Assembly: GCF_003334355.1 (NCBI RefSeq)
Contig: NZ_QOWP01000001.1
Length of the DNA stretch: 64,000 nucleotides
Source: Escherichia coli
GTDB taxonomy: Bacteria > Pseudomonadota > Gammaproteobacteria > Enterobacterales > Enterobacteriaceae
Strand: one strand, 5' to 3'
Below, piece by piece: positions 56,542 through 64,000 of the stretch. Positions within the stretch are counted from its first letter, which is position 1. Each line of letters opens with the position of its first letter. A program made the translations under genes and the position numbers. The notes under the pieces were generated by a model. That model worked only from the letters and a program-made list of their open reading frames with translations. It was not told the DNA's origin and made no database searches.

Positions 56542-57182
56542 AGCCTGCCATTTTTAGCTCAATTCGGCGATGACCTGGATCAATCGTCCCGGCCTGCTTT
56601 TATCAACTGCATAATCAATCAAAATTACCGAAATTTCATGCATAATCACATAAATCACTTTTGCTTATCTTGTGTCAGATTTTTTTATCTCCTTATGGAT
56701 TTTAGGCAAAAACAGTAGCATGAAACGTCATTACCAATTAAGGCAGTATAAAATGCTGGTTTTGTCGTCAGTTCAAGGCAGGATAAGGGTTAACACGCCT
56801 TTATGACAGTCAGGAATTGACTGTTTCTCTAACGACTTCCCTTTTAGCCTTAAAGATAAAATCTATTTTAATTTCAGTCAGTTAATAAAGAATTTTGCGC
56901 TAAAGCACATTTCTGTACCAATAAGCTTGCTATTTGACCTGTATCAGCTTTCCCGATAAGTTGGAAATCCGCTGGAAGCTTTCTGGATGAGCAGCCTGCT
57001 CATCATATTTATGCAGTAATTGAGATCCCCTCTTCACCGTATTAACCGATGCGAAAAGGACAACAAGGGGGCGAATGCGAGGCGCGCGTATGACACGCAA
57101 ACCCCGTCGCCACGCTCTTTCTGTGCCCGTGCGCAGCGGTTCGGAAGTGGGGTTCCCGCAGAGCCTGGGGGAGGTTCACGAT
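56542..57182 (+). promoter_or_regulatory. gltBD upstream regulatory region and leader
   Basis: About 640 bp AT-rich non-coding DNA upstream of gltB; established knowledge places the gltB promoter and its regulator-binding sites here (individual sites not mapped); contains palindrome gatgagca-gcc-tgctcatc near 56986-57004. Confidence 0.45.
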
Positions 57183-60100
57183 ATGTTGTACGATAAATCC
57201 CTTGAGAGGGATAACTGTGGTTTCGGCCTGATCGCCCACATAGAAGGCGAACCTAGCCACAAGGTAGTGCGTACTGCAATACACGCACTGGCCCGCATGC
57301 AGCACCGTGGCGCGATTCTCGCCGATGGTAAAACCGGTGACGGTTGCGGCTTGCTGTTACAAAAACCGGATCGCTTTTTTCGCATCGTTGCGCAGGAGCG
57401 CGGCTGGCGTTTAGCGAAAAACTACGCCGTCGGGATGCTATTCCTGAATAAAGATCCTGAACTCGCCGCTGCCGCACGCCGCATCGTTGAAGAAGAGCTG
57501 CAACGCGAAACCTTGTCGATTGTGGGCTGGCGTGATGTCCCCACTAACGAAGGCGTGCTGGGTGAAATCGCCCTCTCCTCTCTGCCACGCATTGAGCAAA
57601 TTTTTGTGAACGCCCCGGCAGGCTGGCGTCCACGCGATATGGAGCGCCGTCTGTTTATCGCCCGCCGCCGCATTGAAAAGCGTCTCGAAGCCGACAAAGA
57701 CTTCTACGTCTGTAGCCTGTCGAATCTGGTGAACATCTATAAAGGTCTGTGTATGCCGGCGGATCTGCCGCGCTTTTATCTGGATCTTGCGGACCTGCGT
57801 CTGGAATCGGCCATTTGCCTGTTCCACCAGCGCTTCTCCACTAACACCGTACCGCGCTGGCCGCTGGCGCAACCGTTCCGCTATCTGGCGCATAACGGTG
57901 AAATCAACACCATCACCGGTAACCGCCAATGGGCGCGTGCGCGTACCTATAAATTCCAGACGCCGCTTATCCCTGATCTGCACGACGCCGCACCGTTCGT
58001 CAACGAAACCGGCTCTGACTCCAGTTCCATGGATAACATGCTGGAACTGCTGCTGGCAGGCGGGATGGATATCATCCGCGCCATGCGTCTATTAGTACCA
58101 CCCGCCTGGCAGAACAACCCGGATATGGACCCGGAACTGCGTGCCTTCTTTGACTTTAACTCCATGCATATGGAGCCGTGGGATGGCCCGGCGGGCATCG
58201 TGATGTCCGACGGTCGTTTTGCCGCCTGTAACCTCGACCGTAACGGTCTGCGTCCGGCGCGCTACGTCATCACCAAAGATAAGCTCATCACCTGCGCCTC
58301 TGAAGTCGGTATCTGGGATTACCAGCCTGACGAAGTGGTCGAAAAAGGCCGCGTCGGGCCAGGCGAACTGATGGTTATCGACACCCGCAGTGGGCGTATT
58401 CTGCACTCGGCAGAAACCGATGACGATCTGAAAAGCCGCCATCCATATAAAGAGTGGATGGAGAAAAACGTCCGCCGACTGGTACCGTTTGAAGATCTGC
58501 CCGATGAAGAAGTGGGTAGCCGCGAACTGGACGACGACACGCTTGCCAGCTACCAGAAACAGTTTAACTACAGCGCGGAAGAGCTGGACTCCGTAATTCG
58601 CGTACTGGGCGAAAACGGTCAGGAAGCGGTCGGTTCGATGGGCGATGATACCCCATTCGCCGTGCTCTCCAGTCAGCCGCGCATTATTTACGACTACTTC
58701 CGCCAGCAGTTTGCCCAGGTGACTAACCCGCCAATCGACCCGCTGCGTGAAGCGCATGTTATGTCGCTCGCCACCAGTATCGGTCGTGAAATGAACGTCT
58801 TTTGCGAAGCAGAGGGCCAGGCGCACCGTTTAAGCTTTAAATCGCCGATTCTGCTCTACTCCGATTTCAAACAGCTCACGACGATGAAAGAGGAGCACTA
58901 CCGCGCAGATACGCTGGATATCACCTTTGACGTCACTAAAACCACGCTCGAAGCGACAGTCAAAGAGCTGTGCGACAAAGCCGAAAAAATGGTACGTAGC
59001 GGCACCGTGCTGCTGGTGCTCTCCGACCGGAATATCGCTAAAGATCGCCTGCCGGTTCCAGCCCCGATGGCGGTTGGCGCGATCCAGACCCGTCTGGTCG
59101 ATCAAAGCCTGCGTTGCGATGCCAACATCATCGTCGAAACCGCCAGCGCCCGCGATCCGCACCACTTCGCCGTGTTGCTGGGCTTCGGCGCGACGGCTAT
59201 TTATCCATACCTTGCCTATGAAACGCTGGGCCGCCTGGTAGACACCCATGCGATTGCCAAAGATTATCGTACCGTGATGCTCAACTACCGTAACGGCATC
59301 AACAAAGGCTTGTACAAAATCATGTCCAAAATGGGCATCTCCACCATCGCCTCTTACCGCTGCTCGAAACTGTTTGAAGCGGTCGGTCTACACGATGATG
59401 TAGTGGGCCTGTGCTTCCAGGGGGCGGTCAGCCGCATTGGTGGGGCAAGCTTTGAAGACTTCCAGCAGGATCTGCTGAATCTGTCGAAACGTGCCTGGCT
59501 GGCGCGTAAGCCCATCAGCCAGGGCGGCCTGCTGAAATACGTCCACGGCGGCGAATACCACGCCTACAACCCGGACGTGGTGCGCACGCTGCAACAAGCG
59601 GTACAAAGCGGCGAGTACAGCGACTATCAGGAATACGCGAAGCTGGTTAATGAGCGTCCGGCAACCACGCTGCGCGATCTGCTGGCAATTACGCCGGGTG
59701 AAAACGCGGTCAACATTGCTGATGTTGAACCGGCAAGCGAACTGTTTAAACGCTTTGATACCGCCGCGATGTCTATCGGCGCGTTAAGCCCGGAAGCCCA
59801 CGAGGCGCTGGCGGAAGCGATGAACAGCATCGGCGGTAATTCGAACTCCGGTGAAGGCGGCGAAGACCCGGCGCGCTACGGCACCAACAAAGTGTCGCGC
59901 ATCAAGCAGGTGGCTTCCGGTCGCTTTGGGGTTACTCCGGCGTATCTGGTCAATGCCGACGTCATTCAGATTAAAGTCGCCCAGGGCGCGAAGCCAGGCG
60001 AAGGCGGTCAGTTGCCGGGTGATAAAGTCACGCCTTACATCGCCAAACTGCGCTATTCGGTGCCCGGAGTGACGCTGATCTCCCCGCCGCCGCACCACGA

Positions 60101-61643
60101 TATCTACTCTATCGAGGACTTAGCGCAGCTCATTTTCGACCTCAAGCAGGTTAACCCGAAAGCGATGATCTCCGTGAAGCTGGTTTCCGAACCGGGAGTA
60201 GGCACCATCGCGACTGGCGTGGCAAAAGCTTATGCGGACTTGATCACCATCGCAGGCTATGACGGCGGCACCGGCGCAAGTCCGCTTTCATCGGTGAAAT
60301 ACGCAGGCTGTCCGTGGGAGCTGGGGCTTGTTGAAACCCAGCAGGCGCTGGTTGCTAACGGCTTGCGTCACAAGATCCGTTTGCAGGTCGATGGCGGCCT
60401 GAAAACGGGTGTCGATATCATCAAGGCGGCGATTCTCGGCGCAGAAAGCTTCGGCTTCGGCACTGGCCCGATGGTGGCGCTCGGCTGTAAATATCTACGT
60501 ATTTGCCATCTGAACAACTGCGCAACGGGTGTAGCAACTCAGGATGACAAACTGCGTAAGAACCACTATCACGGCCTGCCATTCAAGGTGACGAATTACT
60601 TTGAGTTTATCGCCCGTGAAACCCGCGAGCTGATGGCACAGCTTGGCGTAACACGTCTGGTGGATCTGATTGGTCGCACCGACCTGCTGAAAGAGCTGGA
60701 CGGTTTCACCGCCAAACAGCAGAAGCTGGCGCTGTCGAAGCTGCTGGAGACTGCCGAACCGCATCCAGGTAAGGCACTCTACTGCACCGAAAACAACCCG
60801 CCGTTTGATAACGGCCTGCTGAACGCGCAGTTGCTGCAACAGGCGAAACCGTTTGTCGATGAGCGCCAGAGCAAAACCTTCTGGTTCGATATTCGCAACA
60901 CCGACCGTTCTGTCGGCGCGTCGCTTTCAGGCTATATCGCCCAGACGCACGGCGATCAGGGGCTGGCAGCCGATCCTATCAAAGCGTACTTCAACGGCAC
61001 CGCAGGCCAGAGCTTCGGCGTGTGGAACGCGGGCGGCGTGGAACTGTACCTGACCGGTGATGCCAACGACTATGTCGGTAAAGGCATGGCGGGCGGCTTA
61101 ATCGCCATTCGTCCTCCGGTTGGTTCCGCCTTCCGCAGCCATGAAGCAAGCATTATCGGCAACACCTGCCTGTATGGCGCGACCGGTGGTCGTCTGTATG
61201 CCGCAGGCCGCGCGGGTGAACGTTTCGGCGTGCGTAACTCCGGTGCTATCACCGTGGTAGAAGGCATTGGCGACAACGGTTGTGAATATATGACGGGTGG
61301 TATCGTCTGCATTCTGGGTAAAACCGGCGTTAACTTCGGTGCGGGCATGACCGGCGGTTTCGCTTACGTTCTCGATGAAAGCGGCGATTTCCGCAAACGC
61401 GTTAACCCGGAACTGGTCGAGGTCTTAAGCGTTGACGCTCTGGCGATCCATGAAGAGCATCTGCGTGGTCTTATCACCGAGCATGTGCAGCATACCGGCT
61501 CTCAGCGCGGTGAAGAGATTCTGGCGAACTGGTCAACCTTCGCCACTAAATTTGCGCTGGTTAAACCGAAGTCCAGTGATGTAAAAGCACTGCTGGGTCA
61601 CCGTAGTCGTAGCGCAGCTGAGTTGCGCGTGCAGGCGCAGTAA
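57183..61643 (+). CDS. gltB: Glutamate synthase (NADPH) large subunit, 1486 aa
   Basis: ORF track 57075..61643; trimmed to ATG giving [27 protein letters not shown] (N-terminal amidotransferase Cys); FMN and 3Fe-4S domains. Confidence 0.97.
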
Positions 61644-63074
<1,431 letters not shown>

Positions 63075-63083
63075 GCTCTGTCC

Positions 63084-63136
63084 CAGCGCCGCCTCCTCAG
63101 AAAAGAGTCGGCGCTGAAATTCTCCTTTCTTTCTGG
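63084..63136 (+). terminator. Candidate stem-loop downstream of gltD
   Basis: cagcgccg ... cggcgctg inverted repeat with about 17-nt loop followed by T-rich tract; weak terminator. Confidence 0.3.
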
Positions 63137-63257
63137 AAAGCGCCTCGCATAATCTGAAGAAAACCAATGTAATACGCTCATCTGGATTGTTACCGGTAGA
63201 TGCCCGGCGTATAGCTGATTCCATTATTCAACGCAGCGCCATATAAAGGGACAGATA

Positions 63258-63737
63258 ATGGAATCGCTCTCAGAGAGAACCTCAACAGGCTACCAGCAAA
63301 TCCATGACGGTATTATTCACCTGGTCGATAGCGCCCGGACGGAAACGGTACGTAGCGTTAACGCGCTGATGACCGCGACATACTGGGAAATTGGCCGACG
63401 AATTGTCGAATTTGAACAAGGTGGCGAGGCCAGGGCTGCGTATGGTGCGCAGCTAATCAAGCGACAATCAAAGGATTTAAGTCTAAGGTATAAGCGTGGG
63501 TTCTCTGCAAAAAACTTACGCCAAATGAGGCTTTTTTACCTCTTTTTTCAACATGTTGAAATTCGCCAGACAGTGTCTGGCGAATTAACACCATTGGGAA
63601 TTCCGCAGACACCATCTGCAGAATTCCCATCGGCAAAGATTTGGCAGACGCTGTCTGCCAAATTGAGAGGCTGTTTGATATTTCCACAGCTTTTGTATTG
63701 CATCTCCTATTTTCGGTTTGTATATTCATGCAAATAA
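63258..63737 (+). pseudogene. Truncated DUF1016/YhcG-family gene (N-terminal domain only; PD-(D/E)XK nuclease domain absent)
   Basis: ORF track 63258..63737 (159 aa); residues ~30-100 (LMTATYWEIGRRIVEFEQGG...GFSAKNLRQMRLFY) resemble the DUF1016 N-terminal domain; recognisable similarity stops at the triple repeat near 63560-63670, then an unrelated tail and stop. Confidence 0.5.
63561..63669. repeat. Three tandem degenerate ~38-bp units each with a palindromic core GCAGAC-N(1-5)-GTCTGC followed by AATT
   Basis: Units: ttcGCCAGACAGTGTCTGGCGAATTaacaccattgggaa / ttcCGCAGACACCATCTGCAGAATTcccatcggcaaaga / tttGGCAGACGCTGTCTGCCAAATTgagaggctgtttga. Confidence 0.7.
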
Positions 63738-63754
63738 ACGAAGGAAAGTTGCCA

Positions 63755-64000
63755 TGATTTACATTGAACAGCTTGAATTAATCCATAAAAGTGGTGATGT
63801 GTTGTATCCAGTAAAAATAACCAGAAAATCATCAGGAAAAACTGCCTTCCACCTTGTTCCATTCGGCTTAAATAAGACTCACGACCTTCTAGAGGTGGAA
63901 GATGCTTCAGAAGCAATTCGGCTGGTGATTGATGAACGTCATTCCATTCGCTGCAGTACACTTACAGCAACTATTACGAATAAAAAGGGCAAGCGAATTA
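63755..64000 (+). CDS. Hypothetical protein, N-terminal fragment (at least 81 codons), gene continues beyond window end
   Basis: ATG at 63755 preceded by AAGGAAAG at -13 to -6; reads MIYIEQLELIHKSGDVLYPVKITRKSSGKTAFHLVPFGLNKTHDLLEVEDASEAIRLVIDERHSIRCSTLTATITNKKGKRI with no stop before position 64000; no signal peptide; not recognised. Confidence 0.5.

Follow-up and report, generated by a model that had tools for sequence, protein, structure and literature searches.

The window analysed here, a stretch of 64,000 nucleotides from an Escherichia coli chromosome, runs at its right end through gltB and gltD and stops short of nanQ, and the features found in this part are collected in Table 1. The gltD stop codon is followed by a 183-bp spacer (63075-63257) and then by an open reading frame at 63258-63737, which a sequence-only reading of the window had described as a DUF1016-like fragment. 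This description was confirmed by Pfam, where the domain DUF1016_N (PF17761) matched residues 19-111 of the ORF with an E-value of 4.2e-26. At positions 62800-64000 the window shows 100% identity to E. coli PSS-12 and 99.8% to BL21(DE3), for which RefSeq gives the order gltD, a DUF1016 N-terminal pseudogene, a 306-bp gene named 'transposase' and nanQ-nanK-nanE-nanT-nanA-nanR. The window comes from a B-like E. coli chromosome, and in the gltD-nanQ interval it carries the BL21(DE3)/B allele; the truncated yhcG and the 101-aa ORF are shared, and there is no substantial difference. An artefact of assembly or sequencing might be suspected, since the arrangement falls in the last 1 kb of the window, but such an origin has next to no probability, as the 1.2 kb concerned were covered to at least 80% in 722 independent complete genomes, with 98.5-100% identity in the six listed.

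Table 1. Features at the right end of the window, with positions counted from its first nucleotide.
Feature	Position	Strand	Remarks
gltB	57075-61643		listed ORF; precedes gltD at the right end of the window
gltD, glutamate synthase small subunit	61656-63074	+	472-aa ORF; last gene colinear with K-12; 99.3% identity to K-12; annotated gltD in BL21 and K-12
53-bp leader	63077-63129	+	no K-12 counterpart; limits are alignment breakpoints
yhcG upstream region	63130-63257	+	diverged K-12 homology; about 80% identical in K-12-type genomes
yhcG pseudogene	63258-63662	+	first 135 of 375 codons; DUF1016_N only; RefSeq note 'missing C-terminus'
Three tandem 27-bp palindromes	63560-63586, 63599-63625, 63638-63664		period about 39 bp; inside yhcG
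Foreign segment	63664-64000	+	first 337 bp of 470; 40% GC; replaces 780 bp of intact-type sequence
101-aa ORF	63754-64000	+	first 82 codons; WP_000639208.1; runs past the window end; full ORF at L001 20955-21260

For the comparison with K-12, 50 kb of strain MC4100 upstream from gltD served as the reference for a megablast search with the window. A single alignment was obtained, covering window positions 14079-63076 (49,001 bp at 99.59% identity) and ending 2 nt past the gltD stop codon. The K-12 order is therefore kept upstream in one 49-kb block (99.6%) and colinearity ends after gltD, both as the sequence-only reading had it. The order downstream of gltD in K-12 is gltF, yhcA, yhcD, yhcE::IS5, yhcF, yhcG (375 aa) and nanQ; the statement that gltF lies about 560 bp past gltD and is followed by yhcADEF was accurate, the measured start of gltF being 559 bp after gltD. 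In the place of the 53 bp at 63077-63129, K-12 carries 7,079 bp, consisting of a 27-bp palindrome and then gltF-yhcA-yhcD-yhcE::IS5-yhcF. No homology to gltF-yhcF was detected in the window, nor in BL21(DE3), whose near-identical chromosome was examined for a further 20 kb, so that gltF is indeed missing here. Accordingly, none of the members of the Yhc system, neither the usher yhcD nor the chaperone yhcA nor the subunits gltF/yhcF, stands between gltD and yhcG in the window and BL21. The chromosomal position downstream of gltD is thus the same as that of the Yhc locus of K-12, but the operon is entirely absent from the window, which has the 53 bp instead, and the sequence at 63077-63129 was not found again in the K-12 locus.

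Homology to K-12 is back at 63130, upstream of yhcG, with the match on the K-12 chromosome displaced by 7,079 bp, and pairwise BLAST of window positions 63130-63663 against K-12 yhcG and its upstream region gave 91.4% identity. The DUF1016 gene does not represent new material, being the orthologue of the yhcG of K-12 itself, and colinearity therefore resumes at 63130 after 7.08 kb of K-12 have been skipped. The apparent break at 63076/63077 arises because K-12 has an extra fimbrial operon of 7,079 bp where the window has its leader.

Within the leader, positions 63084-63116 form a GC-rich stem-loop (-19.2 kcal/mol in the RNA fold, z -3.07), and its stem, CAGCGCCG...CGGCGCTG, is also present in the outgroup gltD-yhcG loci described below. 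This stem-loop may be the terminator of gltBD; its tail is merely U-rich (AAAUUCUCCUUUCUUUC) and was not called by the consensus terminator scan. The combined consensus scan for promoters and terminators found none, and the Rfam scan of the BL21 gltD-nanQ interval gave no match at E-values up to 1.

The change that belongs to the lineage of the window itself is located further to the right. Compared with an intact allele, the window and BL21 show 99.5% identity up to 63663, after which homology returns only at the nanQ stop codon. Thus, yhcG is cut at 63663/63664, after codon 135, and 24 foreign codons extend its open frame, which stops at 63735-63737. The proposal of a replacement or deletion beginning within 63075-63257 holds insofar as the structural difference from K-12 starts there, but the lineage's own replacement lies outside that interval, with its start at 63664 within yhcG. 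The predicted PD-(D/E)XK nuclease domain of YhcG comprises amino acids 235-375 (PMC1189080). This C-terminal domain with its E-D-E(I/L/V)K motif is not found in the yhcG of the window, where homology ends at 63663, and with the loss of the nuclease domain the gene is a pseudogene. In relation to the YhcG/DUF1016 family of predicted nucleases (COG4804, PF06250 with PF17761), the window keeps the DUF1016_N part without the nuclease domain. The intact YhcG of 375 aa (L003 3459-4586) was assigned to the PADLOC candidate defence family PDC-S02 with an E-value of 4e-136, and also to phrog_22762. No experimental test of PDC-S02 was found, and the papers naming this family appear to be surveys in which it is listed.

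Across E. coli, yhcG was observed to be variably present, diverged, truncated or absent, with alleles 91-97% identical to each other compared with about 99% in the flanking genes. Variation of this kind is characteristic of defence genes. In E. albertii NBRC 107761 (L013), a deletion located approximately 440-560 bp after the gltD stop codon has left yhcG with about 120 codons; this deletion is independent of the event in the window.

The sequence that has taken the place of the 3' part of yhcG is of foreign origin. The 780 bp replaced correspond, in the comparison of BL21 with an intact allele, to the rest of yhcG and the spacer between yhcG and nanQ, and in BL21 the foreign segment ends at the nanQ stop codon, 134 bp past the end of the window. 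From 63668 to about 64070 it shows 85% identity to DNA of Yersinia canariae, where a phage-type integrase at icd lies next to the shared sequence, and also 85% identity to DNA within a lambdoid prophage of Enterobacter cloacae. The shared DNA reaches further left in Yersinia and Enterobacter, and E. coli therefore holds only a fragment of it. With a 472-bp query, matches of at least 80% coverage were obtained in 719 genomes and matches of at least 99% identity in 722, including BL21(DE3). The name 'transposase' given by RefSeq and UniRef, together with the occurrence of the segment in differing genomic contexts across genera, might suggest that an insertion sequence has transposed into yhcG. 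We consider this highly improbable, since no match to Pfam, NCBIfam or PHROG families, transposase families included, was obtained, no IS-like terminal inverted repeats were found on the segment, and the full-length matches inspected occurred once per genome and were always chromosomal. Moreover, 780 bp were replaced and no target-site duplication is seen, which marks a replacement and not an insertion, the E. coli copy is a fragment of DNA that is longer elsewhere, and the predicted fold of the encoded protein resembles domains of HNH and McrB-like restriction proteins. Direct repeats of 13-14 nt with 79-85% identity, which the left junction has in common with the right end of the foreign segment, were treated as probable chance matches.

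Immediately beyond the window, an 80-bp stretch with two strong hairpins lies between the 101-aa ORF of BL21 and nanQ (L001 21250-21332). About 620 other E. coli genomes contain matches of 76-84% to this stretch, at places in accessory regions that carry no annotation; in the ST131 strain MB1159, for instance, the match is next to an ImmA/IrrE gene. No match to it was found in Rfam.

The 101-aa ORF within the foreign segment is conserved and under purifying selection (dN/dS 0.14-0.23). It had no match in Pfam, NCBIfam, PHROG or PADLOC, and its family is represented by 39 cluster representatives among 1.84 billion proteins. An AlphaFold2 model based on a shallow alignment of 18 sequences was unusable (pLDDT 45) and was superseded by a model from a 36-sequence alignment, which reached a pLDDT of 93.3 and a pTM of 0.82. 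The search of this model against AFDB50 with Foldseek, in which the targets are themselves predicted models, gave TM scores of 0.70-0.83 to domains of HNH endonucleases and AAA/McrB-like proteins, with E-values from 1e-4 to 2e-6 and with annotations including '5-methylcytosine-specific restriction protein B'. A further predicted model, of a 'ScoMcrA-like N-terminal head domain' protein, was matched with a TM score of 0.59. The fold predicted for the ORF would thus resemble that of domains of type IV restriction proteins (HNH, McrB-like AAA+, ScoMcrA-like head). Among solved structures there was no PDB match to the model, and the search of PDB sequences with a profile of the ORF returned only noise (E-value of 0.16 or worse).

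Of the five distant homologues examined, three (P0044, P0052 and P0058) have hsdR as their immediate upstream neighbour and are placed within or next to type I restriction-modification gene sets. The gene order is hsdR-ORF-hsdM-hsdS for P0052 and P0058, and the gene downstream of P0044 encodes a MADS2-like methyltransferase. In P0049 and P0060, two longer proteins in which the domain is C-terminal, no Pfam domains were found. Close relatives of the ORF, including that of the window itself, stand alone in prophages or islands. The lack of a family match, the restriction-like predicted fold and the hsdR-adjacent position of distant homologues leave the name 'transposase' unsupported, and no catalytic transposase domain was recognised. 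From the structural model and these gene contexts, a role linked to restriction or defence would be a reasonable guess.

The stretch from gltD to the convergent nanQ is polymorphic in E. coli, where at least four structural forms of it occur. The first, gltD-yhcG-nanQ, is found in an O39:H21 strain and, with a diverged yhcG, in strain 042. The second is that of K-12, with the beta-class chaperone-usher fimbrial operon gltF-yhcADEF between gltD and yhcG. The third, represented by ST131 and CFT073, is an empty site with one 27-bp palindrome and a gap of only 67 bp between gltD and nanQ, and the fourth is the form of the window and BL21, with truncated yhcG and the foreign segment. Counts were taken in 5426 complete E. 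coli genomes. The left junction of the window type, in which gltD is joined straight to the yhcG leader, was present in 3140 of these genomes, gltF-yhcA in 1148 (1146 of the 1148 at 99% identity or more) and the empty site in 947, and the full arrangement of the window was found in 722; about 190 genomes fell outside all counted classes. The left junction of the window is the commoner one, and the K-12 operon is missing in most E. coli, so that at this locus the form of K-12, with 21% of complete genomes, is in the minority.

The direction of change was examined by an outgroup scan with the conserved 3' end of gltD, using one genome per species, from which 20 loci were obtained. In Kluyvera, Citrobacter, Enterobacter and other Enterobacteriaceae, a convergent nanQ-nanK-nanE follows within 60-280 bp of gltD. 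A leader as in 63077-63129, and then yhcG, stand after gltD in E. albertii, E. whittamii, Escherichia sp. E1V33 and Pseudocitrobacter vendiensis, as well as in two further records titled E. coli, each of which is the representative of a GTDB species of its own. Escherichia sp. MOD1-EC7003 has an empty site with the palindrome. In none of the outgroups scanned (20 loci, one genome per species) was gltF-yhcADEF found at this position. The occurrence of the gltD-leader-yhcG junction in other Escherichia species and in Pseudocitrobacter vendiensis points to this as the older arrangement, and we infer from the outgroups that the left junction of the window would be the older state and that the K-12 operon was probably acquired later, in a part of phylogroup A. 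The claim that the break is strain-specific was not upheld, the left junction being present in 3140 of 5426 complete genomes and beyond the species.

This direction of change agrees with published surveys (PMC5216030; PMC3559732; PMC3032704). The yhc locus has been found in phylogroup A strains only (PMC5216030), Yhc has been called 'highly under-represented' among sequenced strains (PMC3559732), and gltF-yhcF have been tabulated as absent in three comparison strains including B, with IS5::yhcE noted in K-12 (PMC3032704). On the other hand, the lineage of the window might descend from a K-12-like ancestor in which gltF-yhcADEF was deleted. Phylogroup A holds both forms, that of K-12 and that of B, and sporadic fimbriae such as Yhc have been proposed by Wurpel et al. 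to be possibly the remnants of ancient clusters that were lost in most strains (PMC3559732). Such a descent is nevertheless very unlikely, because a deletion cannot create the 53-bp leader, which is missing from K-12 and present in E. albertii, E. whittamii and Pseudocitrobacter vendiensis. In addition, the K-12 operon is nearly without diversity, with the identities given above, and the K-12-specific segment has a low GC content (44.8%, compared with 56.9% for gltBD). The deletion suggested by the sequence-only reading has thus probably not taken place, and it would be K-12 that acquired gltF-yhcADEF, rather than the strain of the window that lost the operon.

The arrival of the operon in K-12 was not a simple insertion into an allele of the window type. 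The left junction of K-12, consisting of gltD, 13 bp and the palindrome, is identical to that of the empty-site form, and more than one event must therefore have been involved. No source could be traced for these 13 bp in either form, and no integrase, direct repeats or other signature of insertion were found at the flanks of the K-12 operon. About 35 bp to the right of the K-12 palindrome (CAAATTACTGACGAAGTGCGCGTTGTTTTC; L002 4963-5000) were observed to be homologous to a Pseudocitrobacter MAG (L020), 60-100 bp after its gltD stop codon. The homologous stretch in this MAG follows a similar palindrome between gltD and nanQ; on its left, the K-12-specific segment thus begins with old intergenic DNA that does not belong to the fimbrial operon.

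The palindrome itself, AATTCGCCAGACAGTGTCTGGCGAATT and variants thereof, deserves separate consideration. A search of the window gave three matches, where none is expected by chance, and all of them are within yhcG, where they encode a repeated I-x-Q-T-x-S motif; combined, the three fold with -61.8 kcal/mol (z -8.4). Other copies are located at L003 4600-4626, L002 4934-4962 and L004 12287-12314. Intact alleles have a similar palindrome after the stop codon of yhcG, and both K-12 and the empty-site form have one after gltD. The palindrome is restricted to the gltD-nanQ locus, where it occupies a median of two places per genome with a maximum of five. A dispersed repeat family such as REP was considered and rejected, as the palindrome is confined to one locus and occurs only three times in the window.

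The junction of the replacement in the window coincides with the 3' edge of the third palindrome. In E. albertii, the junction of the yhcG deletion is a chimeric palindrome, of which the left arm derives from an internal copy and the right arm, with its flank, from the copy after yhcG. Several independent rearrangement junctions are thus situated at or within palindrome copies, which suggests that the palindromes are prone to recombination, although the independent events are few. It might be asked whether the palindromes are the active cause of all structural forms, either as hot spots of recombination or breakage or as recognition sites of YhcG. Besides the two junctions just described, the single copy kept both at the empty site and at the left junction of K-12, and the confinement of the palindrome to this locus, would fit such a role. 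Apart from the small number of independent events, it is opposed by the edge of the K-12 palindrome, which is not a junction, given the homology of the 35 bp beside it to Pseudocitrobacter intergenic DNA. Moreover, the foreign DNA is without the palindrome in its other contexts, and the internal copies may merely reflect the repeated peptide motif that they encode. As a general cause the palindromes therefore appear unlikely.

Taken together, the data are very probably explained by a polymorphic gltD-nanQ spot at which K-12 has gained or imported an operon and at which the event in the lineage of the window was the replacement of the 3' part of yhcG by foreign DNA. This event, 590 bp to the right of the break, inactivated yhcG, a candidate defence nuclease gene. 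All that lay between the edge of the third palindrome in yhcG and the stop codon of nanQ gave way to 470 bp of foreign DNA with low GC content, which is part of a region also present in prophages and integrase islands of other enterobacteria, and the joining would most likely have occurred by illegitimate recombination at or near the hairpin. A further-reaching view would regard gltD-nanQ as a miniature site for the swapping of defence genes, at which the 27-bp palindrome, possibly a substrate of YhcG, drives rearrangement and at which the B-type allele has exchanged yhcG for an undescribed stand-alone member of a restriction-associated domain family that now bears the wrong name 'transposase'; we hold this to be quite unlikely.

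The break downstream of gltD is thus an instance of the ordinary and already published presence/absence variation of a cryptic fimbrial operon, and it becomes apparent through the use of K-12 as the reference. Two minor leads emerge from this locus. One is a palindrome, confined to the locus, which is found where several independent deletions or replacements in the gene of a candidate defence nuclease have their junctions. The other is a small conserved protein, called 'transposase' in hundreds of E. coli genomes, whose confidently predicted fold and whose genomic contexts in distant homologues point to the biology of restriction-modification.
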